Assembly: GCA_964609925.1 (NCBI GenBank)
Contig: CAZSUJ010000009.1
Coordinates: 4,290-68,289, forward strand
Direction: 5' to 3'
DNA length: 64,000 bases
DNA from: an uncultured Chthoniobacter sp.
GTDB lineage: Bacteria > Verrucomicrobiota > Verrucomicrobiia > Chthoniobacterales > JACTMZ01
Under the pieces are notes generated by a model. It had not been told where the DNA came from. It saw only the letters and a list, made by a program, of their open reading frames with translations, and searched no databases. Position 1 is the stretch's first letter. Each line of letters begins with the position of its first letter. The position numbers and the translations under genes are program-made. Positions 5,098 to 58,347 of this stretch are shown piece after piece.

Positions 5098-5238
5098 GGG
5101 GGAGGAGCGGATACAATACACTTGCCGCCGAGAGCGCTCGACGTTTCGCGAGAATTTAAATGCAAAACTACCGCAACTTTATCGGGCATTGCCCGACAGT
5201 CATGGTGTCGCCCGCGGTCGCCGGGCGCTGCTTTGCGG

Positions 5239-32561: not shown

Positions 32562-32658
32562 GGTGTCCGGGGTTTCGGATAGTGTGACACAGGTCGCACA
32601 ACTCTGTCGGACAGCTCGCGCGGCAAAGAATGGTAAACCTTCCGCGCGTGCCGGGCGG

Positions 32659-34723: not shown

Positions 34724-36217
34724 CTAGCGGGAGGGAGGAGAGAACTGGAACGGTCCGAAGTCGGCGTGCGAGGGCGCATCGCCCTCAGCGTGGTGAAACA
34801 AGCCGACGCGGGAGCCGACCCAGCCACCCTCCTTCGCTGCGAAGATGCGCTCGGGCAGCACATCGAAGAAGAACGAGCCGTCCGGTTGCACGTTCACGCC
34901 AACCGGAGTTGTCCCCGCAGGGCTCAGGCCGAGCAACTCGAGGCCGTCGGGCGTGCCGAGCACCAACTCGCAGCCGTCCGCGCCGCGGCGCAGTCCGACG
35001 AAGTGGGCGTCGGCCCCGCTGGTGACCGCGAGGCCGGCCACGCTGGCGACCACCCCCTGCGCGAGATCGATGGTTGTTTCGACTCGGAAACTGCCGGCGG
35101 GGAATTTCTGCCCGACGAAACGCGGATAGCGGGCGACGCCCTCGGCGGGTGACGGGCCAGCGAACAGGCGGAGTTGCCCGGGGCGCGCAGCCATGGACCA
35201 CCACGAGTCCTCATGATTTGCCTGCCATTGCCATTGGAGCCCGAGTGATGAGCCGGTGAACTCGTCGCTCGTGGCCGGGATCTCCGGACCGAATCCCGGC
35301 ACGGGCTTGCGGCAGCGGCTCACCGGTTGGCAAACGCCATTGCGGACCTCGCCGCAGAGCGGCCAACCGTCCACCCATTCCACGGGCTGGAGGTGGGTGA
35401 TGCGGCCGAACGGACCGCGGTCCTGGAAATGCGCGAACCACCATGAGCCGTCGGCGAGATCGACCAGCGCGCCTTGGTGCGGGCCATTGATCTCGGTCTC
35501 GCCCTGCGCGAGGACGACTTTCTCCTCGTAGGGACCCCAGATGTCGCGTGAGCGGAACGCGACCTGCCATCCGGTCTGCACACCGCCGCCGGGGCACATG
35601 ATGTAATACCAGCCGTCGAGTTTGTGGAGCTTCGGGCCCTCGAGGTAAAGGTGGTGCGGGGTGTGGAAAAGCTCGCGTCCTTCACCGAGCAATCGCCGCG
35701 CGTCGGGCGACATGGGCCGCAGGTGAATGCGCTCCTTCAGCCCGCTGCGCGAGAACGCGTAGGCGTGGGCGAGATAGGCTTGTCCGTCGTCGTCCCAGAA
35801 AAGGCACGGATCAATCCACCCCTTGGCTTCCTGCAGGCACCACGGCTCCTCCCATCGGCCGAGCGGGTCGTCGGTGCATGTGACGTAGATGCCCTCGTCC
35901 GGCATGGGAAAGACGATCCAGAACTTTCCTGCGTGGTGGCGGATGGCAGGCGCCCACACACCGCTGCCGAGGCGGACATCGCGGTAGGACGGGTGGGGGA
36001 CGTTGCGGATGGCGTGGTTGACGAGGCGCCAGTTGACGAGGTCGCGCGAGTGCAGGATCGGCAGCCCGGGCGTGCAGTTGAAACTCGAGGCCGTCATCCA
36101 GAAATCATCGCCGACGCGGATGATGTCCGGGTCGGAATAGTCGGCGTGGATGATCGGGTTGGAATAGGTCCCGTCGCCGTTGTCGGGGATCCAGAGATAA
36201 GGGCAGGCGTTGCTCAT
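34724..36217 (-). CDS. GH43 beta-xylosidase-like glycoside hydrolase with C-terminal beta-sandwich, cytoplasmic
   Basis: Start ATG 36217. MSNACPYLWIPDNGDGTYSNPIIHADYSDPDIIRVGDDFWMTASSFNCTPGLPILHSRDLVNWRLVNH is a canonical GH43 N-terminus. ATGA overlap with the GH52 gene (36214-36217). The rest of the 1094-aa track ORF is a spurious extension. Confidence 0.9.
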   Translation of the reverse strand: MSNACPYLWIPDNGDGTYSNPIIHADYSDPDIIRVGDDFWMTASSFNCTPGLPILHSRDLVNWRLVNHAIRNVPHPSYRDVRLGSGVWAPAIRHHAGKFWIVFPMPDEGIYVTCTDDPLGRWEEPWCLQEAKGWIDPCLFWDDDGQAYLAHAYAFSRSGLKERIHLRPMSPDARRLLGEGRELFHTPHHLYLEGPKLHKLDGWYYIMCPGGGVQTGWQVAFRSRDIWGPYEEKVVLAQGETEINGPHQGALVDLADGSWWFAHFQDRGPFGRITHLQPVEWVDGWPLCGEVRNGVCQPVSRCRKPVPGFGPEIPATSDEFTGSSLGLQWQWQANHEDSWWSMAARPGQLRLFAGPSPAEGVARYPRFVGQKFPAGSFRVETTIDLAQGVVASVAGLAVTSGADAHFVGLRRGADGCELVLGTPDGLELLGLSPAGTTPVGVNVQPDGSFFFDVLPERIFAAKEGGWVGSRVGLFHHAEGDAPSHADFGPFQFSPPSR

Positions 36218-38316
36218 CGTTCGTTCAGCCACAGCCACGACGTGACTCCGCGGGGGTAGTATTTGCTGCCCCGCGCCTCTCCGGCGACCATCTGGTCGCT
36301 CCAAGCGAAGTAGGCGTTGCGCTCGTCGACCAGCCAGGCGCGGTGTGCGGCGTCCGCCTTCGGGTCGGGCCCGAATCGGAAGATCTCGCGGGCCACGTGC
36401 TGGCACAGGTAGATCTTGCTCAGCCAGGAGTTGTCGTTGGTTGAGCTGAGCTTCCATCCGCCATCGGTGAACCGGCAGGTGCCCTTGACGAGGATCTTCC
36501 GCAGGTGGACGGAGAGCGCGTCGCGAAGGAATCCGAACTCCCCGCGGGCGCCGAGGAGCGGGGCGAGGTCCCAAGCGAGCGCGAAGACGAGGCCCTCGAT
36601 GGCGGGGATGATGCGCGAGGTGTTGCCCTCGCCCATGACGGCGGGAATCCAGCCGGCGCGGTCGCGGTTCGAGACGATCGTGCGGGCGCAGAGCATTGCC
36701 TGGTGACCGGCGCGCTTGGCTTCGGCCTTGCGTCCGAGCCGGCTCAGGATCTCGCGGAGGCCCACGTAAGCGGCCCATGTTTTCACCGCGAGGTAGAGGT
36801 TGTTGCGAGCCTGCCCGAGCGAAACGTCGAGGCTGTCGTAGGTGGTGATCTCCGCGCCACCGGCGCAGCGGGACGAGTCGGCGCTCATCACGCCGTCGCG
36901 CTTGCGCGGATCCGGATGGTCGCGGTTGACGAGGCTGGACAGACAGCGGCGGAAGACGCTGCCGTTCGCACGCAGCCATTTCGCATCGCCCGTCTTCAGC
37001 ACGTAGGTCGTGGCGCAGCAGACCCAATTGACCAACTGCTCGTGCGTCATGTGCGAGAAGCAGCCGGTCAGTCCGGCCTTCTCGTAGGACGAATGTCCTG
37101 GGCGGGACACGCAGTTCCCGATGCCCATGTCGTGGGTGAAACTGATGCCGCCGGGGTATTCGCGGGCGTCGCCCGGCAACCGCACCCGGTCGGTGTAGGC
37201 GTAGCGCCGCACGAACCAATCGAGCTGGTTGCGCACGACCCACGGGTTGCGGTCGAGTTCGAAGAAGAGGTGGTCCACCGTGAGGTCGAACGTGTTGAGC
37301 ATCCGGTATTCGCCCTCGTTGGCGCACCAGAACGGCTCGTCCTTGGCGGTGACGAGAAACTCGGTCGCGCCGAGGTAGCTGCGGACGGCGTGGCAGACGT
37401 GGAACCGCTGGTCGTCGCTCAGGTGGGAGCGGTCGATGCGGCGGTCGGCTTCGAGCGCCAGAGCCTTCTGCTCGTCCCAGCGCCCGAGCGCGTAAACGGC
37501 GACCTCCTCGATCGAGCCGAACAGGCGCGTGTAGTAGTAACTGGCCGGGAGGCCGCTGGTCACCGTGCCGTCGCGGTGGAAACACACCGCGAAGCGGTAG
37601 CGGACGAGGCGGCCGGCGGGAACGACGGCCATGAGCACACCAACGCCGCCGAGTCCGAAGGCGAGGTTCTCGGGCAGATCCGGCTCGAGGCATTGGTCGA
37701 GGGTGAAGCCGCAGCCCGAGAAGACGTCCGGGTTGTCGCTCACGATGGCCGTGACGGGGCCTTGGCCGACGCCGGTGAATCGTCCGCGGGAAACGTCGTC
37801 GAGGCGGCGGGTGTTGTAGAATGGACTGGATCCCTCGTAGCCGAAGAACGCCTTGCGCGGGCGACGTCCCTTGCGGTTGTCGATGATTAGCTCGGCGAAG
37901 ACGGCTGGGACGAGTGCGCTCCGCAGGGCGGATGCCGATGCCCGTGCGGGGTCTGGAACCGGTTTGGGCGCGGAGTAGATCGAGAAGGTGAGGTCGCCCG
38001 CAGTCCATGTGTCGCTTCCCAGGGAGAAACGGCGGGTGATCGCCGAGGCGGCAAACGGGCGCACGCGGCCGGGCTTGAGCTTCGCATCGGCCGCAACGTC
38101 GTAGCGCCGCGCCGAGTCCGCGCTGCTGGCGAAGAAGGGAAGCGCCTCGTAGCCGCGGCCGTCGCGCCGCTCGACGCCGATGAAGACGTTCTCGTCGGCT
38201 GGGCCGCCGAGCTCAAGGCCGAGCCCGCCCTTGGGCCCCGGGAAGCCGAGGGTGAAACTCGCGAACGCGCCGACCGGCGAGTGGTGCGCGTTGAAGAGCG
38301 CGGACCGGCCCTTCAT
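36214..38316 (-). CDS. GH52 beta-xylosidase
   Basis: Start ATG 38316. MKGRSALFNAHHSPVGAFASFTLGFPGPKGGLGLELGGPADENVFIGVE...DTWTAGDLTFSIYSAPKPVPDP is near-identical in pattern to the N-terminus of Geobacillus XynB2-type GH52 enzymes, recalled from memory. About 700 aa, the typical GH52 size. Confidence 0.9.
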   Translation of the reverse strand: MKGRSALFNAHHSPVGAFASFTLGFPGPKGGLGLELGGPADENVFIGVERRDGRGYEALPFFASSADSARRYDVAADAKLKPGRVRPFAASAITRRFSLGSDTWTAGDLTFSIYSAPKPVPDPARASASALRSALVPAVFAELIIDNRKGRRPRKAFFGYEGSSPFYNTRRLDDVSRGRFTGVGQGPVTAIVSDNPDVFSGCGFTLDQCLEPDLPENLAFGLGGVGVLMAVVPAGRLVRYRFAVCFHRDGTVTSGLPASYYYTRLFGSIEEVAVYALGRWDEQKALALEADRRIDRSHLSDDQRFHVCHAVRSYLGATEFLVTAKDEPFWCANEGEYRMLNTFDLTVDHLFFELDRNPWVVRNQLDWFVRRYAYTDRVRLPGDAREYPGGISFTHDMGIGNCVSRPGHSSYEKAGLTGCFSHMTHEQLVNWVCCATTYVLKTGDAKWLRANGSVFRRCLSSLVNRDHPDPRKRDGVMSADSSRCAGGAEITTYDSLDVSLGQARNNLYLAVKTWAAYVGLREILSRLGRKAEAKRAGHQAMLCARTIVSNRDRAGWIPAVMGEGNTSRIIPAIEGLVFALAWDLAPLLGARGEFGFLRDALSVHLRKILVKGTCRFTDGGWKLSSTNDNSWLSKIYLCQHVAREIFRFGPDPKADAAHRAWLVDERNAYFAWSDQMVAGEARGSKYYPRGVTSWLWLNER

Positions 38317-38317
38317 C

Positions 38318-40678
38318 TCAGTGCGCCGGACGGTTGGATGCGTTGACGTCCGTCTGCGAGTCGAACCCGCCGTCGGTGTCGGCCGTGCGCAGGAGTTCCA
38401 TGTCGCGTGGCGGGACCGAGGTGCGGTAAGCGTCGGCGAACAGCCCGATGCGCGCCATGGGGATCTGCGGGAAGCCTGAGATCTCATGGAAAACGGCGGC
38501 ATCCGGTTTGAGGGAGAAGTCGAGTTCCGCCGGATTGACGAACATGCCGAGGTCATCGCTTTCCACGTTGCCGGCGAACGACAGTCCCTCGAAATCGCCT
38601 TCCTTGCCGGAGGTGCGCAGCCCCTTCTCGCAACGGACGAAGAGGTTGTCCTCGATGACAATGTTGCTCGGCTTTTGCGTCTCCGTCTCGAGGATGCCGA
38701 CGAGTTCCGGGTAGCGCTCGCTCCATGGCGGCTGGGTGTAGGGGACGGAGTCGAGGTCGCCGCGCAGGCGCTTGTCCGTGATGGTGTAGCCGCGGGCGAT
38801 CCCCCGCGAATCGATGTGCATGGCGCGGGGGCTTTCGACGATCACGTTGTTGACGAAGGTCTGGTAATGACCCCCGCCGATGAATCCGCCGGACTCGGTC
38901 TTGTAGGCCACGTTGCCGACGAAGGTGTCGCCGCAGTCGCCGTCGTCCACATAGAAGGCGTTCGCGTTCATCGAGTGGTGGACGAAGTTGTGGCGGATGA
39001 TGTTCCCCCGCGAGGTCCAGCCGGAATTCGTGTAGAAGCAGCCGAGGTCGCTCGAGCCGAGGCCGACGCGGTAGATTTCGTTGAATTCGAAAACATTGTC
39101 GTTGCCCGCGTAAACGATGCCGCTGTTCATGCAGTCGTGGATGCGGTTGTTGGCGATGAGGACGCCGACCGCCTCGGCGCGCGGGCCGAGGCCGCCGTTG
39201 ATGCCCGGCGCCGGGAAGAACAGTCCGGCGCGGGTCACGAGGTTGTTGACGATGCGGTGGCCTGAGGGGGAAAGCGTGGCGCGGTCCCCGCCGGTGTAGG
39301 CGATGCCCGAGTAACCGGTCTCCGCCGTGTCGCACGAGAGCACCGTGTGGCGCCAACCGCCCTCGAGCACAATGCCGTCACGCGAGACATTGGAAACCCT
39401 GCATCCGGCGATGAGGACATCCTCGCCCCCCGTCACGCGGATGCCGTCGCCCAGTCCGCTGTCCACGGAAAGGCCCTTGAGCGAGACGTGCGAAACGTTG
39501 CGGAGGTGAACGACGGGCTTGGTCACGTCGGTGACAAGCAGTTCGGCGGCGCCTTCCGGCGGCAGGATGTAGAGCGTGTCGTCGGTGAAGCGGACAGCCC
39601 ACTCGCCGGGCGTGCTGATTTCCTCGATGAGGTTGATCGCCTCCCAAGGTTCCTCGCCGGATCCCGGGCCGGGGCCGTTGTTGGGGGCGCGGGTGTATTT
39701 GGAACCGATGCCGCCGCCGATGCGTCCGGCCAGGGTGATCGATCGGTTGCCCGGGTCGATCTGCCCGACGCGGGCGGCCTCGATGACCCAGGGAACGCGC
39801 CAGAACCCGCGCAGCCAGAGGCCATCGGCGACCGCCTGCTGCCAGCGGAGCACGTCGTCCTCGTTGAACACGAACACGCCGTTGGAATCCGGCGTGATGC
39901 CGTTGTCGAGCACCTTGGCCATGCGGGCGAAGCGTCCGGCGTCGGGCCAACGGGAGAGGGGAAGGCGGCGCCCGTCGGTCTGCACCTCGAGGAGTTCGAT
40001 GCCGCGGAAGTTGTCGGGAAACCGGCGTGCCTTCAGCCCCCCCTCCGCCAGCGGGAGGATGCGAACCTGGTCGCGCACTTCCTCGCGGAGGCGTTCCCGG
40101 AGTGCCGGGTCGGTCACGGGGGCGAGTGAAGAGATGGGAACAAGGACGCCGGAAGAGATGCGCACATCCTCGCCGGGTGCCGCCGTGTAGACGATCGGCC
40201 GCTCGGGGGAACCCGAATCCTCCTCGGCCAAGACGAGTCCGTCGCGCACCACGTAGTGCCCGCCGCCGATGACGATACGCACGGGGCGGTCCTTGATCGT
40301 GCGGGCCGCATCGCGGGCCGCTTCGATCGTGCCGAAGGGCTTGGCGGCGGAGCCATCCCCGCCGGACGCGGCGGAGACGGCGACGTGCAGGATGGCCGAG
40401 TTATCGGGAAGGTTTTCCTGCGGTGATGCCGTTACTGGTGCTTGTGCAGGCGTTGCAGTTGCGGCGACAACCGGTGTCTCGGCCGGTGCCGCGGCGGGTG
40501 TCGAGGCAACGGTCTGCGCGGGCGTTTGCGGGGGTGTCTCAGCGGGTGCAGCTTGCGCAGGCGCGGCGGCCGCAGGCTTGGTCGCCGGCGGGGTGGGGGC
40601 GGAGACCTGCCCCAGAATGAAATACAGGCCGCCGCCGACGACAACGAGGGCGATGAGAAGACTGAGCGCGGTCTTCAT
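38318..40678 (-). CDS. Membrane-anchored right-handed beta-helix protein (pectate-lyase fold) with Pro/Ala-rich linker
   Basis: 786 aa. MKTALSLLIALVVVGGGLYFILG is a TM anchor, followed by about 70 aa of P/A/T linker. LHVAVSAASGGDGSAAKPFGTIEAARDAAR is the same entry motif as the giant 21092-27556 core. Beta-helix turns follow (NNRIHDCMNSGIVYAGNDNVFEFNEIYRV...). Confidence 0.85.
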   Translation of the reverse strand: MKTALSLLIALVVVGGGLYFILGQVSAPTPPATKPAAAAPAQAAPAETPPQTPAQTVASTPAAAPAETPVVAATATPAQAPVTASPQENLPDNSAILHVAVSAASGGDGSAAKPFGTIEAARDAARTIKDRPVRIVIGGGHYVVRDGLVLAEEDSGSPERPIVYTAAPGEDVRISSGVLVPISSLAPVTDPALRERLREEVRDQVRILPLAEGGLKARRFPDNFRGIELLEVQTDGRRLPLSRWPDAGRFARMAKVLDNGITPDSNGVFVFNEDDVLRWQQAVADGLWLRGFWRVPWVIEAARVGQIDPGNRSITLAGRIGGGIGSKYTRAPNNGPGPGSGEEPWEAINLIEEISTPGEWAVRFTDDTLYILPPEGAAELLVTDVTKPVVHLRNVSHVSLKGLSVDSGLGDGIRVTGGEDVLIAGCRVSNVSRDGIVLEGGWRHTVLSCDTAETGYSGIAYTGGDRATLSPSGHRIVNNLVTRAGLFFPAPGINGGLGPRAEAVGVLIANNRIHDCMNSGIVYAGNDNVFEFNEIYRVGLGSSDLGCFYTNSGWTSRGNIIRHNFVHHSMNANAFYVDDGDCGDTFVGNVAYKTESGGFIGGGHYQTFVNNVIVESPRAMHIDSRGIARGYTITDKRLRGDLDSVPYTQPPWSERYPELVGILETETQKPSNIVIEDNLFVRCEKGLRTSGKEGDFEGLSFAGNVESDDLGMFVNPAELDFSLKPDAAVFHEISGFPQIPMARIGLFADAYRTSVPPRDMELLRTADTDGGFDSQTDVNASNRPAH

Positions 40679-40683
40679 CTCGA

Positions 40684-41985
40684 TCAGGCGAGAGGCTCGT
40701 TGTTGGCAGTGACGTTGGTGAAACGCTGGCCTTCGACGTCCTCGAGGTGGAGGGCGGGACGTTCGTCCGCCTCGCGGGTCGAGAACTCGCAGTCGCGGAA
40801 GCGGATGTTGCGGGTGTGGCGCAGGAACAAGGCCCAGCTCGGCAGCGGGTGGAAGGCGGGGAATTCCGGATACTCCCCCTCCTGCTCGGGCACCGGGGCG
40901 TCGGAGCGTTTCCCTCCTCCGGGATACACGACGCGGACGTTATCGAACGTCACATCCTCGACGTTGTGGCCGGGGATGCCGGTGACGATGATGCCGGCCT
41001 TCCGCGGGTATTTCCCGTAGAGGAGGAAGCCCTCTTCCCAGACGTTGATGCGGACGTTGCGGATGACCACACCGCGCAGGATGCCGACGGGGCGGTCGGG
41101 TTGGTCGGCGAAATACTTGCGCAACCGCGAGCCGAGCCGGATGAAAATCGGCCCCGAAACGTTGTCCATGATGATGTTGTCTACCAGCACGTTCTCGAGG
41201 CGGCATCCATCCATGCTGATCACCTTGAGCCCTCCACCGTTCGTGTTGTGGATCACGATGTTGCTGAAGATGATGTTGCGGAAATCGCCAGCCGACTCGG
41301 TGCCGAGTTTGAGCGCACCCCAGTCGCTCGAGATGCGGCAACCGGTGACCACGATGTCCTCCGAAGGCGTGGCCCGCGTGGCCTTGATGCAAACGGCGTC
41401 GTCCCCCGTGTCGATGTCGCAGTCGCTGATCCGCACGCGGCGGCAGGAATCCACGTCGATGCCGTCGTTGTTGCTGTTGACCCGGCTGCGGATCGTCACG
41501 CCGTGGATGAGCACGTTCTCGCACCCGAGGTAGTGGCTGACCCAGCCGGGAGAGTTCTGCAGGGTCACGCCGGTCACCTGCACGTCGCGGCAGTCGATGA
41601 AACGCACCATGAACGGCCGTCCATCCTCCTCGAAGCCGTATTCCCCGCCGCTTCCGTCAATGATTCCCTGCCCAGTGATGGCGGTCCCCACGGTATCCTC
41701 GGCGTAGATGAGGCAGCGGTTGCGCTTCTGCCCGACGGCGTCGGTGAAGCCGCCCGCCACCTCCGGGTAATCCTCGATCCGGGGGCTGCCCTTCAGCGTG
41801 CAGCCGTTGTCGAGGTGGAGGGTGACGTTGGAACGGAGGTGGATCGTCCCGATGAGGTAGAGCCCGGCTGGCACGCGGACCGTGCCACCGCCGGCGGCCG
41901 CGGCTGCGTCGATGGCTCTCTGCAGGGCCTTGGTCTGGGGTTGGTCGGTGCTGGGGCGCACGCCGTGTTCGGTGGCGGTGGTCAT
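40684..41985 (-). CDS. GH28 polygalacturonase-like glycoside hydrolase
   Basis: The start is probably ATG 41985 (MTTATEHG...). KALQRAIDAAAAAGGGTVRVPAGLYLIGTIHLRSNVTLHL...NNDGIDVDSCRRVRISDCDIDTGDDAVCIK are GH28 catalytic motifs (NxDGID / GDD). No signal peptide is evident. Confidence 0.9.
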   Translation of the reverse strand: MTTATEHGVRPSTDQPQTKALQRAIDAAAAAGGGTVRVPAGLYLIGTIHLRSNVTLHLDNGCTLKGSPRIEDYPEVAGGFTDAVGQKRNRCLIYAEDTVGTAITGQGIIDGSGGEYGFEEDGRPFMVRFIDCRDVQVTGVTLQNSPGWVSHYLGCENVLIHGVTIRSRVNSNNDGIDVDSCRRVRISDCDIDTGDDAVCIKATRATPSEDIVVTGCRISSDWGALKLGTESAGDFRNIIFSNIVIHNTNGGGLKVISMDGCRLENVLVDNIIMDNVSGPIFIRLGSRLRKYFADQPDRPVGILRGVVIRNVRINVWEEGFLLYGKYPRKAGIIVTGIPGHNVEDVTFDNVRVVYPGGGKRSDAPVPEQEGEYPEFPAFHPLPSWALFLRHTRNIRFRDCEFSTREADERPALHLEDVEGQRFTNVTANNEPLA

Positions 41986-42102
41986 GGTGGGGAGGCTTTG
42001 GAATGTGTGGTCGCCGCGGCGCGGAGACACAGCATGTTCCTAACCCGGGCCGCACCCGCGGGCCAGCGGCGGGTGCGAGTAAGGAGGGAATAATTCTCTA
42101 AG

Positions 42103-42200: not shown

Positions 42201-44627
42201 ATGACACCGCGCCTGCCTTCCCTTCTTCTCCTCGTTGTTGTCTGCTGCTGCTCCGCCTCCGCGGCGCTGCCGACCCAACCGATGCGGGTGGGAGAACTGC
42301 CCCCTCCGCCCTTCGACCCTTCCGGCGGCTTCGTCGTCTCGTTTCCGGATGCCCTCGTGGCAGCAGGACGCGGGCCCGATGGCGCCATGGTTCTCTGGAC
42401 GAACTCCCCGGATGGCCGGCAGCAATGGCAGCCCGCGGGTGGAACGGTGCCGCGCGATGCCGCGGTGGCACGCCATGGCGGCGTGTGGATTCTCGCCGGC
42501 GGTGTCGAGAACGGCGCGCCAACGGCGGCGGTTCGCACGCTGAGATTCGACGGGGGCGTTCCCGTTCTTGAGCCTCTTCCGGATCTGCCGTCCGTCATCG
42601 CCGGCGCCGCCGCTGCCGTGGTTGGTGAGAAGCTCTATGTTTTCGGCGGAAGCAAGTCGGGCGACATGCTGGCTCCGACGGCCGAGCTTTGGGAACTGGA
42701 CCTCGGCACGCCCGGTGCGACATGGAACGCCGCCCCGCCGCTTCCCGGGGAGGCCCGGGCCTTCGCGGCCTACGCGGGGCATAGCGGCATGCTCTGCATT
42801 TTCGGTGGGACCGACGCCGCGGGCACAGCATTGCGTGACACGTGGGTCTACCGCCCCGTGCCGCTGGAGGGAACAAAGGAGTCCGGCTGGAAGCGCTTGG
42901 GCGATGCGCCTGCACCCTTGGCGCGCGGCGCGGCCCTGCCGCTCGGGCAATCGCAGTTGCTTGTCATGGGTGGCGCGCAACCTCTGCTCTTCCACACCGT
43001 CACCGATGCGTGGTGCGCCTTCGACGCCTTGCCGCGTCTCGCCGGAACGGCGCTCGCGCGGTCGAAGGACGCGGTGGTGGCGCTGGGCACGGGCGAGGGG
43101 GGCGCGCCGGGGGCGGCCGAGCTGTCGACTCCGCGCAGTGTTCGCAACCTCGCGCTGATCGATTACGCGATGATCATCGCCTACTTCGTCGTCATCTTCC
43201 TCATCGGCGTCTATTTCTCGCGCAAGCAGGACACGAGTGCCGAGTTCTCGCTGGGCAACCGGCAGGTCAAATGGTGGGCCGCCGGCATCAGCATGTTCGC
43301 GACCGGGGCCTCGGCCATCAGCTTCATCGCCATCCCCGCGCTTGCTTTCTCGACCAACCTCGTCTGGCTCTTCCCGCTCGTGGCCATGATCCCGGGGTAT
43401 TTCGTCACAGCCTACCTCATCTACCCGATGCTCCGGCGGCTCGAGATCGCCTCGACCTACGAATACCTCGAGCGGCGGTTCAGCCGTGCCCTGCGCGTGA
43501 TCGCGAGCCTCCAGGCCATCATCTTCCAGTCTTTCGTCCGCGCCGCCGTGGTCCTGCTCCTGCCCTCGCTCGCTATCTCGTCGGTCACCGGCATCAACGT
43601 CTACACCAGCGTGCTGATCATGGGCGTGGTCACCACGATCTACACCGCGATCGGCGGATTCGAGGCGGTGATCTGGACCGAGGTGCTGCAGGCCGTGCTC
43701 ATGTTGCTGGCCCCTCTGGCCATCATCTGGGTGTGCATCGCCAGCCTGCCGGGCGGCATGGGCGAGTTCTGGTCCACCGGGCTCGCCTACTCGAAGTTCG
43801 ACTTCGCCGTGCTCTCGTGGGACCCGACCGTTCCGGCCTTGTGGGTTCTCGTGTTGGGAACCTTCCTCACGGCAACCGTCGCCTCGGCGGGCGACCAGCC
43901 GGTCATCCAGCGCGTCTTCTCCGCCCCGCTGCCGGAGGTCCGCAAGGTCAATGCAACGTTCACCATCTGCGGCATCATCATCGGCATCATGACCAATGTG
44001 ATGGGCATCGCGATTTTCGCCTACTTCCGCGCCCACCCCGAGATGCTCGATCCGCTCTCGCAGAACGACCAGATCGTGCCGCTCTTCGTGACCCAAGCCA
44101 TGCCGCTGGCCTTCCCGGGCATCGTCATCGCGGCGATCTTCGCCGCTGCCATGTCCACCGTGGCGAGTTCCATGAACAGCGTGGCCACGATCTTCACCGA
44201 GGATTTCTACGTTAAGCTGCGTCCCCAGTCCTCCGACCGGGAACGCCTGCTCACGCTGAAGATCGGATCCTACGTGGTCGGCGTCATCGGCACGGTGATG
44301 GCACTGCTGCTTGCCGCCCAGGACCTCAAGTCCATGATGGTCGTCTGGAACCAGTTGGTCGCTCTGGTGGGCGGCGGCATCGTCGGCGTGTATTCGCTCG
44401 GCATGTTCAGCAAGCGCGCCAACGGCTTCGGGGCGATCTGCGGGGCGATCGCGAGCATCGTGGTCACGGCGCTGGTGCGGATCTACACTCCGCTGCATTG
44501 GGGCACCTACATCCCGATCGCCATTTTCAGTTGCATCGTCGTCGGCTACCTCGCCAGTCTTTTGCGTCCGCAAACCAAGGACCTGAAGGGCCTGACGGTC
44601 TTCACTCCGTCCGCAGCTTCCGCCTAA
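42201..44627 (+). CDS. Fusion protein: signal peptide + Kelch/beta-propeller (NanM-like mutarotase fold) + sodium:solute symporter (SSS family)
   Basis: ATG 42201 ([21 protein letters not shown]). Kelch-like blades: [35 protein letters not shown]. From about 43149 it is an SSS permease: [58 protein letters not shown]... with many TM segments running to 44627. Confidence 0.85.
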
Positions 44628-44640
44628 CCAGTCCAGGATC

Positions 44641-45948
<1,308 letters not shown>

Positions 45949-46040: not shown

Positions 46041-46478
46041 ATGCTCAAAGGAATCCATCCCGCCGTCAGCCCGGAACTCCTCAAGACCTTGGCCGAGATG
46101 GGCCATGGTGACGAAATCATCCTCGCGGATGCGCACTTTCCCGGGCATTCCGTGAATGCGAGAGTTCTCCGAGCCGATGGTTTGTCCATCGCGACTCTGC
46201 TCGACGCCATCCTGCCGCTCTTCGAGTTGGACAGCTACGCACCTCCGCTCGTCATGATGGCTGCGGTCCCGGGGGACACCCTCGACCCCGCTGTCGAGGA
46301 GAGTTACCTGCGCGCCATCCGTCTTCACGTGCCTGACGCGAAGCCGCCGGAGCGCATCGACCGCTTCGATTTCTACGACCGGGCGCGCGCCGCCTTCGCC
46401 GTGGTCATGAGCGGCGAGACCGCCAAATACGGCAACATCCTGCTCAAGAAAGGCGTCACGCCGACCGCAGTTCCCTGA
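46041..46478 (+). CDS. fucU: L-fucose mutarotase (RbsD/FucU family)
   Basis: 145 aa. [35 protein letters not shown]...[11 protein letters not shown] is the FucU pattern. Confidence 0.9.
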
Positions 46479-46530: not shown

Positions 46531-48306
46531 ATGAACCCCGTCCTCACCAACCTCCCCAAAGTCGGCATCCGTCCGACCATCGACGGCCGCCTCGGCGGCG
46601 TCCGCGAGTCGCTTGAAAACCAGACCATGGCCATGGCCCGCGCCACAGCCAAGCTGATCAGCTCGACGCTGCGGCATCCCACCGGCGAGCCCGTCGCGTG
46701 CGTGGTTGCCGACACTTGCATCGGCGGTGTCGCGGAGGCCGCGGCGTGCGCCGAGAAGTTCCGCCGCGAGAACGTCGGTGTCTCGCTCACGGTCACGCCC
46801 TGCTGGTGCTACGGGTCCGAGACCATGGACGCAGACCCGCTCACTCCCAAGGCGATCTGGGGCTTCAACGGCACCGAGCGTCCGGGAGCGGTCTATCTCG
46901 CCGCCGCGCTGGCCGGACACACCCAGAAGGGCCTGCCCGCGTTCGGCATCTACGGGCACGATGTGCAGGACGGCGGGGACAAGGAAATCCCGGACGACGT
47001 GCGGGAGAAGATCCTCCGCTTTGTCCGCGCCGGACTCGCCACCGCGACCATGCGCGGCCGCGCCTACCTCGCCATGGGCGGAACGTCCATGGGCATCGCG
47101 GGTTCGATCGTCAGCCCGGACTTCTTCGAGCACTGGCTCGGCATGCGCAGCGAATCGGTCGACATGACCGAGTTCATCCGGCGCATCGACCGGGGGATTT
47201 ACGACAAAGTCGAGTTCACCAGGGCGCTCGCCTGGGTGAAGACCAACTGCCGCGAGGGCAAGGACTGGAACAGCCCGAAGACGAAGCGCTCCCGCAAACG
47301 TGTGAACGCCGAGTGGGAGACCTCGGTCAAGATGGCCCTCATCGCCCGCGACCTCATGGTCGGCAATCCGAAACTCGCCAAGTTGGGCTTCGGCGAGGAG
47401 GCGCAGGGACACCACGCCATCGCGTCCGGTTTCCAGGGCCAGCGCCAATGGACCGACCACATGCCCAACGGCGATTTCCTCGAGGCCATCCTCAGCACAT
47501 CCTTCGATTGGAACGGCCGCCGCGCTCCCTACATCGTGGCGACGGAGAACGACGCCATGAACGGTGCCGGCATGCTCCTCGGTTACCTGCTCACCAACAC
47601 GGCCCAGGTGTTCGCTGACCTGCGCGCCTATTGGAGCCCGGAAGCCATACGCCGCGTCTCCGGCGAGGCGCCGACCGGCCTGGCCGCCCAGGGGCTTCTG
47701 CACCTCATCAATTCCGGCCCCGCCGCCCTCGACGGGTGCGGCCAGCAAAGCATCAATGGGCAGCCGGCGATGAAGCCGTTCTGGGAGATCACCAACGCCG
47801 AGGTCAAGGCGTGCCTCGCCGCCACGACATGGCATCCCTCGATCACAGAATACTTCCCCGGTGGCGGCTGGAGCACTCGCTACGTCACCCGTGGCGGCAT
47901 GCCGGCCACCATGTTCCGGCTCAACCTCGTGCACGGCCTCGGCCCCGCGTTGCAGATCGCCGAGGGCGAGACGGTCGAGCTTCCGCCGAAGACCCACAAG
48001 CTTCTCGAGGAGCGCACGAACCCGACGTGGCCGACCACTTGGTTCGTCCCGCGGTTGACCGGGCGCGGCCCCTTCTCCGACACCTACTCGGTCATGAACA
48101 ACTGGGGCGCCAACCATTGCGTGATGAGCTACGGCCACATCGGGGCCGACCTCATCAGTCTCGCCAGCATGCTGCGAATCCCGGTCTACATGCACAATGT
48201 GGATCGCGCGCGCGTGTTCCGGCCCAGCGCATGGGCCGCGTTCGGCACCGACGATCTCGAGGGCGCGGACTTCCGTGCCTGCGCGAACTTCGGCCCGCTC
48301 TACTGA
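46531..48306 (+). CDS. fucI: L-fucose isomerase
   Basis: 591 aa, the FucI size. [26 protein letters not shown]...[13 protein letters not shown]...[17 protein letters not shown] are FucI N-terminal motifs. Confidence 0.95.
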
Positions 48307-48327
48307 CCCGGTGCCCGGGGCGCCTTT

Positions 48328-48389
48328 TGTAGCGGCGGTCTCCGACCGCCGAACGCAACCATCCGCCGGTGGAGACACCGGCGCTCCAG
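48328..48389. repeat. REPIN-like doublet: two inverted REP units, slightly degenerate
   Basis: tGTAGCGGCGGTCtccGACCGCCG, a 12-nt spacer, then CGCCGGTGgagaCACCGGCGCTCCAg. Each unit is GTAG/GGAG plus an 8-bp hairpin. It lies 22 nt after the fucI stop. Confidence 0.6.
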
Positions 48390-50247: not shown

Positions 50248-52326
50248 TCAGGGCTGCAGCACGGCCTCGATGCCCAGGAACTGGTTCGTCGAGGTGCGCG
50301 GGGTGCTGAAGATCTGACGCGCCGTGCCGAAGGGCACGCCGGACTGATCAACCGCATTGCTCTGCGTCACGGTATTCGTGGTCCACGGACCGGTAGCCAG
50401 GTTGGTCGTGGTCCGTCCGATGACCGAGAGGCTCGGGTTGTTCGTCCGGACGATGGCCGTGATGGACAGCAGGTTCGTCGTCAGAGTGGTGACGGACGGA
50501 ACGCTGTTGTTGTTCGTCGGGCCGCTGGCGCCGCCGACCGCGTAGAGGCTGAGGTTCGTCGTGTTGAGCGGTGCGCCCTGCGCCCAGCTCGTGAACGTCG
50601 CCCCTCCATTGTCGTTGCTCCAGAAGACCAAGGGCAGGGTCTGCACCACATTCGAGGGCCCGAGCACCCAGCTGCGGTTCTCGAAGAGGTCGTTCGGGTT
50701 GACGATCTCGTAGCCGTTGTTCACGGGGAAGCCGGGGCTGTAGAACTTGTATTGGTTGGTCGTGCCGGGGGCGCCCGAGATCGCGAACTCGCCCACGTAG
50801 ATGTTCGAGCCGGCGTTGGTCAGGTTGTAGTTCGTGTTGCCGGTCTCGTAGTTCTGCCCGTTGAAGTTGCCGATGACACGGACGACTCCGCCGTTCGTGT
50901 TGAAGTTGCCGTTGGCCACCTGCACGGTCATGTCAACCGAGAAGGACACGGGGCGGCTGGCCGGGACGTTGGTCTGGTTGTTCCAGAACACGGTGGGCTC
51001 GACCTGCGCGGGAGTCGGGCTGCCGTTCGTGTTCAGGGCGAGCACCAACTGGCGGTTGGGATCGTTCTCGTAGCCGCTGTTGGGCATGCCGACGCTGTAG
51101 AATTTGTAGGCGATGTTTTGCCCGTCCAAGCCGGCGATGTTCGAGATCGTTCCGGTGAAGACGCTGTTCGTGCCGGGGGTCAGGATGTTCCCCGAGGCCC
51201 CGCTGGTGTCCCAGTTGTTGAACGCGCCGACCACGAGCACATCGTTCGTGCCGTTGTAGTTGCCGAGCGCCTCTTGCACCGACATGTCCACGGAGAAGGT
51301 CACGTCGCGGAAGCCCTGGATGTTGTTGTAAAACACCGTGGGGAGGGTGAGGGGAGGCGGGGTGGAATTGGTCCCGACCGCGAAGGTCCGGTCAGGCGAG
51401 GTTTCGAGTGAGGCATCGATGGCGAATTTGTAGTTCACCGATGTCCCGTAGAACCCCGGGATGGCAAAGGTGCCTTCGAAGATACCGTTGGTGTCCCCGT
51501 CCGAGAGTTCATAAGCGAGATCACCGGGCGTGAACCCGTTCCAAGCGCCCGCGACGGTGACCACGTTCAGGGCCGGGTTGAAGTTAGTTATGGCCGTCTG
51601 CACGTTCATGTCCACCGAGAAGGTTACGGTGTTGGTGATGGAGAGCGCCGAGTTGGCCAGCGTGTAGGAATTGATGGGGTTAGTGCCGCCCGAAGTGTAG
51701 GGGCCGCCCCAACCGGTGACCGATACGTTCGGGTTCGCCAAGGCATCAAGCGCGCTATCTCCGCCGCCGCTGCCGGAGGAATAAGCATCAAAATAAAGGA
51801 CGCTGCCCAGATTGGTGGTCCCCAAACTGGCTTTGCTCACCGTGTAGTTGATGGTCGAGGTGCCGTTGGTGTTGGTGGCGAACGTGTAGGCGGTGAGGTT
51901 GCCAAGGTTGGTGCTCCAGTTGGTGCCAGTATAGCCCCAGATCTGTGAGCCGCCACCGCCGTTGACCCAAGAACCGATCCAGCGCGTCATGCCGCCAGTC
52001 GGGCCGTTGAGCTGGATCGGGCGATTCCAGCCGTTGCCGGTGTTGGTGTTTGTTGTGGCACCCGTCGCTATGCCGATCATCAAGTTGGCCCAGTCGTTAG
52101 GAGAGGCGATGATGCCATTGACGGTGAGGTTGAAGATCACGTCGCTGCTCGTGTCGGACACCTCCATCTTCACGATGTCCAAGGTGCCTCCGGCCGTCGG
52201 GAGGTTCGTCGCGATGTCACCGATCGCATCCGTGTAAATTGTCGGCTGCGCCAGCAAAGAGCCGGCGGTGAGGCTGAAAACGGCGAAGAACGCGCAGACG
52301 CGCACAACGAGGGGGCGGATTTTCAT
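50248..52326 (-). CDS. Secreted N/T/G-rich protein: glucodextranase-C-like N-domain, three tandem CBM20-like (starch-binding-fold) modules, shared C-terminal domain
   Basis: 692 aa. The signal is MKIRPLVVRVCAFFAVFSLTAGSLLA|Q. DAIGDIATN...LDIVKMEVSDTSSDVIFNLTVNG forms the N-domain. There are three about 105-aa repeats, each opening (T/D/P)V(T/S)FSVDM.VQ and containing ...V.G.(W/F)N....YKF... The C-terminus is NLSLYAVGGASGPT...LSITAIVRTNNPSLSVIGRTTTNLATGPWTTN...RQIFSTPRTSTNQFLGIEAVLQP. Confidence 0.85.
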   Translation of the reverse strand: MKIRPLVVRVCAFFAVFSLTAGSLLAQPTIYTDAIGDIATNLPTAGGTLDIVKMEVSDTSSDVIFNLTVNGIIASPNDWANLMIGIATGATTNTNTGNGWNRPIQLNGPTGGMTRWIGSWVNGGGGSQIWGYTGTNWSTNLGNLTAYTFATNTNGTSTINYTVSKASLGTTNLGSVLYFDAYSSGSGGGDSALDALANPNVSVTGWGGPYTSGGTNPINSYTLANSALSITNTVTFSVDMNVQTAITNFNPALNVVTVAGAWNGFTPGDLAYELSDGDTNGIFEGTFAIPGFYGTSVNYKFAIDASLETSPDRTFAVGTNSTPPPLTLPTVFYNNIQGFRDVTFSVDMSVQEALGNYNGTNDVLVVGAFNNWDTSGASGNILTPGTNSVFTGTISNIAGLDGQNIAYKFYSVGMPNSGYENDPNRQLVLALNTNGSPTPAQVEPTVFWNNQTNVPASRPVSFSVDMTVQVANGNFNTNGGVVRVIGNFNGQNYETGNTNYNLTNAGSNIYVGEFAISGAPGTTNQYKFYSPGFPVNNGYEIVNPNDLFENRSWVLGPSNVVQTLPLVFWSNDNGGATFTSWAQGAPLNTTNLSLYAVGGASGPTNNNSVPSVTTLTTNLLSITAIVRTNNPSLSVIGRTTTNLATGPWTTNTVTQSNAVDQSGVPFGTARQIFSTPRTSTNQFLGIEAVLQP

Positions 52327-52353
52327 GGGGGGATTGTTTGGTAGTTGTTGCGT

Positions 52354-52381
52354 AAATTAGCAGGAGCCGCTTGGGGCGCAA
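52354..52381 (-). promoter_or_regulatory. Weak candidate sigma70-like promoter for the 50248-52326 gene
   Basis: The minus strand reads TTGCGC (52381-52376), 16 nt, TAATTT (52359-52354), about 27 nt before ATG 52326. It overlaps the two CGTAAAT motif copies. Confidence 0.25.
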
Positions 52382-52411
52382 CGTAAATCTGTCCCGTGGC
52401 GCCGCGGCAAG

Positions 52412-52438
52412 CACCTCCCCGGCTGGGCCGGGGAGGTG
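52412..52438. repeat. Perfect 11-bp inverted repeat (stable hairpin) in the divergent intergenic region
   Basis: CACCTCCCCGG-ctggg-CCGGGGAGGTG. There is no flanking T-tract on either strand, so it is not a classical terminator. Confidence 0.7.
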
Positions 52439-52496
52439 ACAGATCCCATCCCGCAGCGGGTGGGCGGCTGGTTTTGGCGACACCACAAAAAACCAG

Positions 52497-52525
52497 TTGA
52501 CATTGCTCCGCGGTATTTACATTGT
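52497..52525 (+). promoter_or_regulatory. Candidate promoter of the pseudopilin operon (A-tract, TTGACA, weak -10); predicts a leaderless or very short-leader mRNA
   Basis: acaaaaaaccag-TTGACA (52497-52502), then either 15 nt and TACATT (52518-52523) or 17 nt and CATTGT (52520-52525). ATG follows at 52532. There is no Shine-Dalgarno sequence. Confidence 0.35.
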
Positions 52526-52531
52526 GATTAC

Positions 52532-53062
52532 ATGAATCAGCCAGAGTTGGCAGTCCGCAGTCCGCAGTCTTCAGGTTCGCAGCTGGCCTCCCGCTCCCTG
52601 ACTCCCGATGCCTGCTGCCACCGCGCCCGGCGCCCCTTCGATGCCTTCACCATGATCGAACTGCTCGTGGTCATCGCCATCATCGCGATCTTGGCCGGCC
52701 TCACTCTCTCCACTCTCGGCTACGTGAACCGCAAAGGCGCGGAATCCCGCGCCCGCGCCGAGGTGGCGGCGCTCTCTACCGCCATCGACAGCTTTTTCGC
52801 CGATTACGCGGCCTACCCGGCCTCGAACAACCTTTTCCGCGAACTCACGGGCCACAGCGCGGCGCCCATCAACACCAATCGCAAAGTCTTTTTCGAGCCC
52901 CCCGCCAACATCACGACCAACCTGACCACCGGTCCATTCATTGATCCTTGGGGAGCGGCCTACAACTACAACCCCAGCAACCCCGTCAACAACGTTGGCT
53001 TCTACGACCTGTGGACAACTGCTGGCGGGAAAACCAACCAGCGCGACTGGATACGAAATTGA
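52532..53062 (+). CDS. GspG-like major pseudopilin (prepilin-type N-terminal methylation domain) with a 38-aa leader
   Basis: ...RARRPFDA|FTMIELLVVIAIIAILAGLTL has the class III signal core with E at +5. The GspG-like body has RAEVAALSTAIDSFFADYAAYP, IDPWGAAYNYNP and YDLWTTAGGKTNQRDWIRN. Confidence 0.85.
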   Translation: MNQPELAVRSPQSSGSQLASRSLTPDACCHRARRPFDAFTMIELLVVIAIIAILAGLTLSTLGYVNRKGAESRARAEVAALSTAIDSFFADYAAYPASNNLFRELTGHSAAPINTNRKVFFEPPANITTNLTTGPFIDPWGAAYNYNPSNPVNNVGFYDLWTTAGGKTNQRDWIRN

Positions 53063-58302: not shown

Positions 58303-58347
58303 GCCCGGAGATTGACTTTTTTGGCGGCTTCCTTTCCCTCTCTCTTC

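Follow-up and report, generated by a model that had tools for sequence, protein, structure and literature searches.

A Kelch Propeller-SSS Permease Fusion of PVC Bacteria on a Branch Apart from the Sialic Acid Transporters

Fusion gene and its occurrence

On the plus strand of the window (the whole 64-kb stretch of DNA analyzed here), an open frame at 42201..44627 encodes an 808-residue protein, P0001, composed of a signal peptide, a Kelch propeller, and an SSS permease; this assignment draws on the stop-free translation, on Pfam and NCBIfam domains, and on more than 500 full-length homologs. The longest ORF opens upstream, at TTG 42114. With ATG 42201 as the start, the protein begins with a typical signal peptide of 21 residues and cleavage before A (42201..42263; hydropathy peak at residues 5 to 23), the putative site being the motif A-S-A/A, and homologs of the fusion likewise start with signal peptides. 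Residues 24 to 310 (42270..43130) form a six-bladed Kelch propeller that is cyclically permuted relative to Escherichia coli NanM/YjhT, as seen from an AF2 model, the Kelch fold, and a profile match to PDB entry 2UVK. An eight-residue linker, PRSVRNLA (43131..43154), connects the last propeller strand (residues 303 to 309 by DSSP on the full-length model) to the first membrane helix, which begins at residue 319. The permease core (residues 319 to 788; 43155..44564) has 13 helices in an N-out/C-in arrangement, according to PF00474, TIGR00813, the match to SiaT (5NV9), hydropathy, and AF2.

The SSF profile PF00474 aligns with residues 349 to 750 over profile positions 1 to 404 of 406 (169 bits), and NCBIfam TIGR00813 scores 234 bits (cut-off, 184); these full-length matches above threshold, together with the presence of the Na2-site residues, place P0001 in the SSS family. 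In the propeller, Pfam identifies Kelch families and, at residues 127 to 268, NANM (PF24996), the latter at 46.7 bits (cut-off, 45) with only profile positions 2 to 134 of 350 aligned. An earlier reading made from the sequence alone had proposed a single frame with a signal peptide, Kelch blades, and a complete SSS permease, and the data agree with it in each of these parts; all four blade motifs that it quoted, LLVMGG among them, are present in P0001.

That the propeller and the permease belong to one gene rather than two is evident from the assembled sequence, in which 43100-43200 is free of stops and frameshifts, and from the recurrence of the architecture in more than 500 proteins and 51 related loci. 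An assembly artifact, or a pair of separate genes, was ruled out by the open frame and by the same fusion in hundreds of independent assemblies. The homolog search returned 528 matches among the scored candidates, nearly all of them combining NANM/Kelch with SSF. Species-representative genomes hold 58 fusion loci, every one from PVC bacteria, and the same-clade fusion accounts for 51 loci in such PVC genomes. Among the genomes searched, the clade is confined to PVC bacteria (Verrucomicrobiota, Planctomycetota, and Kiritimatiellota), and the branch is common among Verrucomicrobia of soil and freshwater. Propeller-fused SSS transporters as a whole are abundant in Verrucomicrobia, Planctomycetes, and related bacteria, which account for much of the breakdown of complex glycans in these two habitats. 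The sequence-only reading had regarded such fusions as sporadic and uncharacterized; instead, they are widespread, and the sialic acid branch of the architecture has been published as SiaF (PMC8461474). In a literature search, no relevant account of Kelch-SSS fusions from Verrucomicrobia that degrade polysaccharides turned up.

Gene neighborhoods

Thirteen nucleotides separate the stop codon of the fusion from the ATG of xylA (xylose isomerase, 44641..45948, plus strand; TIGR02630, 662 bits versus a cut-off of 533). Next on the same strand are fucU, for an L-fucose mutarotase of the RbsD/FucU family (46041..46478; NF011949, 222 bits versus 141), and fucI, for L-fucose isomerase (46531..48306; NF008220, 1,050 bits versus 775). 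All three reach equivalog-level NCBIfam scores, in line with the earlier naming of these genes. A consensus scan found no terminator pattern between the fusion and the end of fucI, and 3' of fucI it found a terminator-like hairpin (48310-48324) followed by a T-run (48310..48334, plus strand; pattern match only). The fusion is probably cotranscribed with xylA-fucU-fucI in the source genome, and the hairpin pattern probably marks the end of a four-gene transcription unit. A sigma-70 consensus scan upstream of the fusion found no promoter, a result that carries no information in this phylum.

Divergent from the fusion, on the minus strand, lies a GH28 gene (40684..42030; PF00295) whose product resembles exo-polygalacturonosidases (PDB 3JUR at 9e-39) and, with its N terminus read, has no signal peptide. 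The same operon contains a gene for a membrane-anchored right-handed beta-helix protein of 786 residues (38318..40678, minus strand; PF13229), in which an N-terminal anchor is followed by an Ala/Pro/Thr-rich linker. A GH52 beta-xylosidase-like gene (36214..38316, minus strand; PF03512, 533 bits) has its probable ATG at 38316. A signal peptide is missing from GH28, GH52, and one GH43 of the 64-kb window. A GH29 fucosidase is encoded in the same island as the fusion.

Neighbor counts were taken over the 51 loci of the fusion's clade. A GH28 homolog adjoins the fusion in nine of them and is the most often kept neighbor in the closest relatives; the closest one, L009 (79% identity), retains GH28 and not xylA or fucI. 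Near the fusion we also found GH43 (11/51), GFO/IDH/MocA (10/51), LacI (9/51), homologs of the beta-helix protein (7/51), and GH29 (3/51). By comparison, xylA adjoins the fusion in none of the 51 loci, nor does fucI, and fucU does so in two, directly upstream (L027 and L035, Akkermansiaceae). The xylA-fucU-fucI linkage is specific to the source genome, and the recurrent neighbors of the clade are cytoplasmic GH28, GH43, and other plant-glycan genes. A Verru_Chthon pseudopilin cassette lies beside the fusion/GH28 block in at least eight related loci as well as in the source locus.

Conserved neighbor families of 752 residues (without assignment; near the fusion in 14/51 loci), 580 residues, and 819 residues gave no Pfam or NCBIfam match, and those of 752 and 580 residues gave no match to PDB sequences; none of the three offers a clue to the substrate. 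Neighbor content differs across the clade, and its members may thus differ in substrate.

Substrate site of the permease

The best solved relative of the permease is SiaT of Proteus mirabilis (PDB 5NV9, 3.2e-73; Wahlgren et al. 2018, PMC5931594), with homology over the full permease length, although SiaT has no propeller. The next solved relatives, SMVT, NIS, and SMCT1, are all anion or carboxylate carriers. We mapped the residues that define the Neu5Ac site of SiaT (PMC5931594) onto P0001. Ser60, Thr63, and Arg135 of SiaT correspond to S371 (nt 43311), S374 (nt 43320), and R447 (nt 43539), all on the plus strand, which would form a carboxylate clamp; the position of Arg135 is occupied by Arg in 45 and by Lys in 2 of the 47 clade members, whereas distant SSS paralogs of the same genome lack the clamp Arg. 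The Na2 site is kept, with A56, S342, and S343 of SiaT represented by A367, S652, and T653. At the Na3 site, Asp182 is kept as Glu, and Ser345 is Ala.

The rest of the pocket differs. T58 is replaced by G, F78 by W, G81 by P, N247 by T, Q250 by A, and Q82 by L, V, I, or G; Gln at the last position occurs in 0/47 clade members, and P0001 has Leu there (L393, nt 43377, plus strand). The SiaT residues that contact Neu5Ac at its glycerol tail, N-acetyl group, and anomeric OH have given way to others in P0001. Judged by this site mapping, the Neu5Ac pocket has been rebuilt, while the Ser/Ser/Arg carboxylate clamp and the Na2 site are retained. A pocket Arg alone is no proof of a carboxylate cargo; sugar-binding sites often contain basic residues (PMC5931594).

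Propeller and comparison with NanM

AF2 models the propeller with a pLDDT of 95. It superimposes on Kelch structures with Z scores of 28 to 29 (rmsd, 2.2 to 2.5 A over 246 to 266 residues), the best matches being peptide-binding Kelch domains. Foldseek and a second pass gave only generic Kelch folds among the matches listed, with 2UVK not among them, and these fold searches neither support nor exclude NanM ancestry. In a profile comparison, the propeller matches 2UVK at 3.4e-18 through all blades, in cyclically permuted order, and the similarity is no stronger than that to eukaryotic Kelch domains. NanM is nevertheless the nearest named relative, as the earlier reading had it, and E. coli NanM/YjhT (2UVK) is likewise a periplasmic six-bladed Kelch propeller. 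Unlike it, the P0001 propeller is fused to a permease and is probably monomeric. The NCBIfam models for NanM score P0001 far below their cut-offs (TIGR03548, 40.9 bits versus 243; TIGR03547, 32.2 versus 256).

We take the catalytic residues of NanM, at one end of its central cavity, to be Glu209 and Arg215; NanM was reportedly studied by Severi et al. in 2008 through structure and mutagenesis. Both residues are seen in the 2UVK chain sequence. PMC10017367 confirms only that such a site was located by mutagenesis. In the alignment, NGE209AKPGLR215 of YjhT faces G101-V102...P107 of P0001, so that the Glu/Arg pair is missing. The motif GE..PG.R, searched as G[ED]..[PA]G.R, occurs nowhere in P0001's clade; it was found only in L082 and L084, two nan-linked fusions of the same phylum, which also score 128 and 150 bits with PF24996 (P0001, 46.7 bits). 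The idea that the propeller acts as a mutarotase, put forward from sequence, finds no backing in this comparison, since the active-site pair is lost clade-wide and kept in the nan-linked fusions; the P0001 propeller is, we infer, not a NanM-type sialate mutarotase.

Topology and predicted docking

The propeller follows a signal peptide, the first membrane helix (TM1) runs from out to in by the positive-inside rule, and the 13 permease helices are as in SiaT. The propeller is therefore predicted to be periplasmic, as had been supposed. The full-length AF2 model has a pTM of 0.89. When the propeller and the permease were modeled as split chains, the complex scored 0.77 versus 0.00 for the best of three controls. 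Of 80 solved complexes, 58 reach that mark, as do 2 of 110 mismatched pairs; the use of our own alignment makes these counts only rough. The split-chain runs share at least 95% of their contacts, with a partner pLDDT of 85.

In these models, the propeller appears to sit rigidly against the periplasmic loops that follow permease helices 2, 6, and 8, and the docking would involve its most conserved loops (P221-E223, G249-Q250, and H265-W271). At the predicted interface, propeller residues exceed the remainder of the propeller in conservation (0.67 versus 0.52; permutation p ~0.005), whereas those of the permease show no excess conservation over the remainder of their domain. Conserved polar residues occur in the propeller at the predicted interface and nowhere else. 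The physical coupling of propeller and permease that had been suggested before is thus favored by the eight-residue linker and by both types of model.

Relation to SiaF

Fusions of NanM with SSS permeases were described as SiaF, a group of ST5 sialic acid transporters, by Severi et al. 2021 (PMC8461474). Like P0001, SiaF has a signal peptide and a cyclically permuted, NanM-like six-bladed propeller N-terminal to a 13-helix N-out symporter, and it too is found in Verrucomicrobia and Planctomycetes. Neither propeller has the long dimerization hairpin of E. coli NanM. P0001 differs from SiaF in several respects: the pocket is not conserved, GE..PG.R is missing, the gene lies outside a nan cluster, and the neighbors are plant-glycan genes.

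In a tree of 71 SSS domains, P0001 falls into a clade of 47 rows with a support of 100, whereas L082 and L084 group with a nanA-linked SiaT (L069 of genome G334; SH-aLRT, 98) apart from it; the tree is from a quick search with limited sampling, in which nan-linked relatives of the same phylum stand in place of published SiaF sequences. As far as sequences tell, the clade is a diverged, uncharacterized sister of the published SiaF/SiaT transporters. The source genome, 97.8% complete, contains no NanE, no AGE/NanE-II, and no NanA above the cut-off, and no sialic acid pathway is recognizable in it. One unassigned aldolase of the DHDPS family on contig C39 scores 165 bits with the NanA model (cut-off, 281), as well as it does with the DapA model, and with this enzyme a sialic-like 2-keto-3-deoxy acid stays conceivable as cargo. 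A nanA scan with the narrow model TIGR00683 placed 1 of 401 genomes of the phylum above the cut-off; given how narrow the model is, this count does not show NanA-like lyases to be rare in the phylum.

In Terrimicrobiaceae relatives, the fusion and a GFO/IDH/MocA oxidoreductase gene overlap by 4 nt, which recalls the pairs of anhydro-sialic acid transporters with NanY/NanOx (GFO/IDH/MocA). The source genome has no homolog of this oxidoreductase, and xylA takes its position.

Proposed function and alternatives

On balance, we lean toward the view that P0001 is a Na+-coupled SSS importer with a periplasmic N-terminal Kelch propeller, that it represents a non-sialic clade of PVC bacteria, and that its cargo is a carboxylated plant-wall sugar. 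The cargo would be a sugar or small oligosaccharide that carries a carboxylate and is freed from plant-wall glycans of the pectin type; fragments that contain galacturonate or are substituted with xylose would fit best. The neighboring GH28 and GH52, both without signal peptides, would complete its breakdown in the cytoplasm, and its products would feed XylA and UxaC; UxaC and XylB are present in the genome. The propeller may be a capture or gating module built in above the mouth of the transporter, or else an anomerase that uses another active site.

A bolder version, which we hold only tentatively and rate as unlikely, makes the propeller a permanently docked, nonenzymatic receptor or lid at the gate loops, through which the clade would import acidic plant-wall oligosaccharides (which may include xylose-substituted or plain oligogalacturonides) for cytoplasmic GH28, GH52, and GH43. 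By analogy with TRAP and ABC systems, P0001 would then be a LeuT-fold SSS symporter whose built-in binding domain replaces the soluble binding protein. To our knowledge, no SSS transporter is known to carry acidic plant-wall oligosaccharides.

The sequence-only reading had favored L-fucose or D-xylose as the substrate, with a periplasmic propeller mutarotase handing the preferred anomer to a neutral-sugar permease for XylA, FucU, and FucI. The short spacer to xylA, the uninterrupted stretch to the end of fucI, and the fact that the only genes probably cotranscribed with the fusion act on neutral sugars speak for this proposal; the genome has no FucP-type permease, a propeller docked on the periplasmic side could hand over a substrate, the GH29 fucosidase of the island recurs at three related loci, and the fucU genes of L027 and L035 attest to a fucose link in at least two further loci. 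However, it draws on gene order in the source genome only, with xylA and fucI beside the fusion at none of the 51 related loci and L009 keeping GH28 but neither of these genes. In addition, the NanM catalytic motif is missing, conserved polar propeller residues occur only at the predicted interface, the clamp is kept, and the permease is nearer to carboxylate and anion carriers than to SGLT-type sugar carriers. The genome yielded no FucK or FucA equivalog; the candidates considered as partners of FucI turned out to be AraD (the best FucA-like match), a ribulokinase, and a rhamnulokinase-like gene. We regard this proposal as doubtful. Kelch domains mostly are platforms for protein-protein interaction, and the propeller might tether the permease to an envelope component (e.g., a secreted glycosidase or the pseudopilin cassette) with no role in substrate handling. 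The generic Kelch fold with its peptide-binding matches, the lack of conserved catalytic-looking residues outside the domain interface, and the recurrent cassette next to the fusion/GH28 block are consistent with a platform, but no partner was identified, and the synteny may merely reflect a shared glycan utilization island. The weak but detectable homology to NanM/CPM mutarotases, permuted as in SiaF, speaks for descent from a sugar-handling domain, and we consider a pure platform quite improbable.

Least probable by far is an ordinary SiaF that imports Neu5Ac or a related nonulosonic acid with the help of a NanM mutarotase domain. Its case consists of the domain order, permuted propeller, signal peptide, and 13 helices described in PMC8461474, along with SiaT as the best solved match, the Pfam NANM hit slightly above the cut-off, and the NanA-like DHDPS paralog on C39. 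Against it, the Neu5Ac-site residues are all conserved across SiaT, SiaX, and SiaF (PMC8461474), yet those corresponding to Q82, T58, N247, Q250, F78, and G81 are replaced here; the NanM motif, a nan cluster, NanE, AGE, and an above-cut-off NanA are all missing, the clade lies apart from the nan-linked SiaT and SiaF of the same phylum, and habitat and neighbor genes point to plant glycans.

For the clade of P0001, the label "SiaF, sialic acid" would be wrong in that it implies foraging on host glycans, whereas the genes suggest plant-wall use. Under the carboxylated plant-wall sugar reading, identification of the cargo would fill a gap in our picture of acidic plant-sugar uptake by PVC bacteria, and the predicted rigid docking on the gate loops offers a testable model of how an extracytoplasmic domain may feed or gate a LeuT-fold transporter. 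The two branches can be told apart in sequence by three marks: the motif GE..PG.R, Gln/Asn versus a hydrophobic residue at SiaT position 82, and the Pfam NANM score.

A Kelch propeller fused to an SSS permease

The fusion gene occupies window positions 42201 to 44627 (+) as one uninterrupted open frame of 808 amino acids, and its translation contains each of the four blade motifs that the sequence-only reading quoted. The longest ORF over it starts at TTG 42114; the true start is likely ATG 42201, because a classical signal peptide ([21 protein letters not shown]|A) begins there and homologues also open with signal peptides. The public gene call for the protein (P0002, 781 aa) begins at Met28 (window 42282) and so is without the signal peptide. 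Pfam assigns Kelch families, NANM (PF24996, 46.7 bits with a cut-off of 45, residues 127 to 268), and a full SSF domain (PF00474, residues 349 to 750, profile positions 1 to 404 of 406), while NCBIfam TIGR00813 scores 234 bits (cut-off, 184). The claim of a single-gene fusion is borne out: the open frame and the recurrence of the same architecture in many other genomes rule out two genes or an assembly artefact.

Of the candidates scored in a search of a large protein collection, 528 matched; the top 120 are nearly all 780 to 890 aa long with NANM/Kelch and SSF domains, and those that are named come from Terrimicrobiaceae, Methylacidiphilales, and other Verrucomicrobiota. Scanning one genome per species yielded 58 loci, all in PVC bacteria (Verrucomicrobiota, Planctomycetota, Lentisphaerota, and Kiritimatiellota). 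A propeller-fused SiaT-like frame is present in at least roughly three dozen of 401 sampled Verrucomicrobiota genomes, a lower bound obtained with two candidates scored per genome. In the genome that contains the window (3.55 Mb, 97.8% complete), the propeller-SSS fusion gene is present in a single copy, and no free-standing NANM gene was found. The fusion is a real and widespread SSS importer with a periplasmic propeller, a relative of SiaF that lacks the sialic-acid hallmarks.

Hydropathy indicates a signal peptide and 13 helices, and four Lys/Arg residues in the loop after permease helix 1 predict that this helix runs from out to in, with the propeller outside. In the full-length AF2 model (pLDDT, 88.6; pTM, 0.89), the final strand of the propeller extends to residue 309, and helix 1 of the permease begins at residue 319. 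Folded as separate chains, propeller and permease scored 0.77, and the best of three controls scored 0.00; by a count that is only rough, since our own alignment was used, 58 of the 80 solved complexes reach this mark, compared with 2 of the 110 mismatched pairs. At least 95% of contacts are shared between the split-chain runs, and the partner pLDDT is 85. To our knowledge, no similar propeller-permease complex has been solved. The predicted interface comprises propeller residues 24 to 26, 221 to 227, 248 to 254, 263 to 272, 290, and 310 and permease residues 383 to 388, 530 to 545, and 606 to 622, the permease segments being the periplasmic loops that follow helices 2, 6, and 8. The most conserved nonstructural residues of the propeller (P221, E223, G249, Q250, H265, T268, D269, and W271) fall within it, and mean conservation is 0.67 in the propeller interface versus 0.52 elsewhere (permutation P of about 0.005); conservation of the permease interface is not above its already conserved background.

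Relationship to the SiaF transporters

SiaF proteins were described as ST5/SSS sialic-acid transporters with an N-terminal NanM domain that bears a signal peptide and is cyclically permuted, and they were reported in Bacteroidetes, Planctomycetes, and Verrucomicrobia (Severi et al. 2021, PMC8461474). The same study proposed for SiaF the hand-over of substrate from propeller to permease. That publication thus anticipates both the architecture and the idea of coupling, and the earlier view that such fusions are uncharacterised does not stand. The published sample held only transporters encoded in nan clusters, from organisms whose sialic-acid pathway is complete, and all Neu5Ac-site residues of Proteus mirabilis SiaT were reported to be conserved across SiaT, SiaX, and SiaF (PMC8461474). 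Measured against that description, the window's fusion differs from SiaF in its permease pocket, its propeller, its position relative to nan-linked controls, and the pathway of its host. The architecture is known, but no description of this non-sialic clade was found in the literature searched.

The closest solved relative of the permease is SiaT (5NV9, 3.2e-73), followed by SMVT, NIS, and SMCT1, and the alignment with 5NV9 has no gaps from the conserved IPA block to the YEYLE block. Among the site residues defined in PMC5931594, A56, S60, T63 (as Ser), R135, S342, S343 (as Thr), and S346 are retained and D182 is conservatively changed to Glu, whereas T58 (Gly), F78 (Trp), G81 (Pro), Q82 (Leu), N247 (Thr), Q250 (Ala), and S345 (Ala) are replaced. 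In SiaT, Ser60, Thr63, and Arg135 hold the carboxylate, and the residues replaced here hold the glycerol tail, the N-acetyl group, and the anomeric hydroxyl (PMC5931594). Across the 47 clade members, position 82 is always L, V, I, G, T, or S and never Gln, and at position 135, 45 members have Arg and 2 have Lys; distant SSS paralogues in the window's genome are without this Arg. The retained clamp and the kinship with carboxylate or anion carriers suggest a cargo that bears a carboxylate.

The AF2 model of residues 22 to 318 is confident (pLDDT, 95) and shows a generic six-bladed Kelch fold (Z of 28 to 29 to NS1-BP, KLHL12, and Keap1). A profile of the 47 propellers matches YjhT/NanM (2UVK) at 3.4e-18, a similarity that does not exceed the one to eukaryotic Kelch domains, and the three stretches aligned to 2UVK stand in cyclically permuted order. 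The YjhT motif NGE209AKPGLR215 aligns to G101-V102...P107, with both E209 and R215 lost. Only 2 of 71 related proteins have G[ED]..[PA]G.R, namely, the nan-type fusions L082 (GERMPGVR) and L084 (GEVRPGVR), whose Pfam NANM scores are 128 and 150 bits, respectively, versus 46.7 bits for the window's fusion. The propeller is thus probably not a NanM-type mutarotase; it may capture or gate the cargo or be an anomerase with a different site.

L082 is followed by a DHDPS-family, NanA-like gene. In the SSS-domain tree, L082 and L084 group with an unfused SSS of another verrucomicrobial genome, G334 (SH-aLRT, 98), whereas the window's fusion belongs to a separate 47-row clade (support, 100). The G334 gene lies immediately 3' of a bona fide nanA (417 bits on NF003164), the only NanA above the TIGR00683 cut-off among the 401 genomes sampled. 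This locus (L069, G334:C1:2310368-2312729), a canonical nanA followed by the unfused siaT-like gene, is in a low-GC (37%) genome. No NanE, AGE, or NanA above the cut-off was found in the window's genome (97.8% complete), and one unassigned DHDPS-family aldolase (C39:10220-11356) scores the same, 165 bits, on the DapA model as on the NanA model. A third SiaT-like subfamily (L070 to L075 and L078; e.g., L074:8476-10422; 648 to 727 aa) retains Gln/Asn at SiaT position 82; its members carry a signal peptide, and their N-terminal domain is shorter. Their genes always adjoin a GFO/IDH/MocA oxidoreductase gene and genes for proteins of 437 and 308 aa, an arrangement that recalls the pairing of the anhydro-sialic-acid transporter with NanY.

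Gene neighbourhood and candidate cargo

Among 51 clade loci, an uncharacterised 752-aa family lies directly downstream of the fusion in 14 (e.g., L032:6969-9227), and the neighbourhood includes a 580-aa family in 12 (e.g., L017:4805-6547), GH43 with a C2 domain in 11, a GFO/IDH/MocA oxidoreductase in 10, GH28, an 819-aa family (e.g., L030:13780-16239), and a LacI regulator in 9 each, a beta-helix protein in 7, GH3 in 6, a SASA esterase in 4, and GH29, GH42, and GH88/105-like proteins in 3 each. The three unnamed families, which are probably glycoside hydrolases, gave no Pfam or NCBIfam match, and the 752- and 580-aa families, the two searched against PDB sequences, gave none there. These two are without signal peptides; four paralogues of the 819-aa family lie on the contig that holds the window. 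Window ORFs 643-5121 (-), 15233-18475 (-), and 28419-32807 (-) were entered with the unnamed families. In two Terrimicrobiaceae loci, L010 (3062-4105) and L012 (12382-13419), the GFO/IDH/MocA gene overlaps the fusion stop by 4 nt; no homologue was found in the window's genome, where xylA sits at that position.

A divergent operon in the window (36214-42030, -) encodes GH28, a beta-helix protein, and GH52, with intergenic gaps of 5 and 1 nt. The GH28 is exo-polygalacturonosidase-like (3JUR, 9e-39), the beta-helix protein is membrane anchored with a long Ala/Pro/Thr linker, and the GH52 (ATG 38316) is beta-xylosidase-like. GH28 is kept in the closest relatives (L009, with 79% identity, L011, L012, L015, and L016). 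The GH28 and GH52 have no signal peptide, and the presence of such glycosidases beside an importer suggests uptake of small oligosaccharides whose breakdown is completed in the cytoplasm. The wider island contains a GH29 fucosidase, several GH43 genes, and a SASA esterase, and UxaC and XylB are encoded elsewhere in the genome (uxaC at C2:1-1128, truncated by the contig end; xylB on C71). The GH28, GH43, GH52, GH88-like, and esterase neighbours, together with UxaC, point to a cargo derived from pectin-type or related plant-wall glycans.

The main rival to such a carboxylated plant-wall cargo is import of fucose or xylose, as the sequence-only reading proposed. Downstream of the fusion lie xylA (44641-45948, +), fucU (46041-46478, +), and fucI (46531-48306, +), each with an equivalog-level NCBIfam match. 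As 13 nt separate the fusion stop from the xylA ATG, and a terminator-like hairpin occurs 3' of fucI (48310-48324) with none convincing ahead of it, a four-gene transcription unit is plausible. Yet tblastn detected xylA and fucI in none of the 51 clade loci (42 of which are at least 9 kb) and fucU in 2, directly upstream of the fusion in L027 and L035; the linkage to xylA-fucU-fucI is peculiar to the window's genome. Neither FucP nor FucK and FucA equivalogs were found in that genome (97.8% complete), and its best FucA-like match is AraD of an araBAD-like cluster. We retain fucose or xylose as an improbable cargo in view of the operon in the window, the independent linkage of fucU to the fusion in two loci, and the lack of a FucP. 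The araBAD-like cluster is on C101, and C109 has a rhamnulokinase-like gene.

Pseudopilin-type Verru_Chthon cassette genes recur near the fusion in clade loci. The cassette adjoins the fusion/GH28 block in the window (50248-63049) and in at least eight related genomes (L012, L014, L015, L016, L033, L036, L045, and L046), and it may be part of the same glycan-utilisation island.
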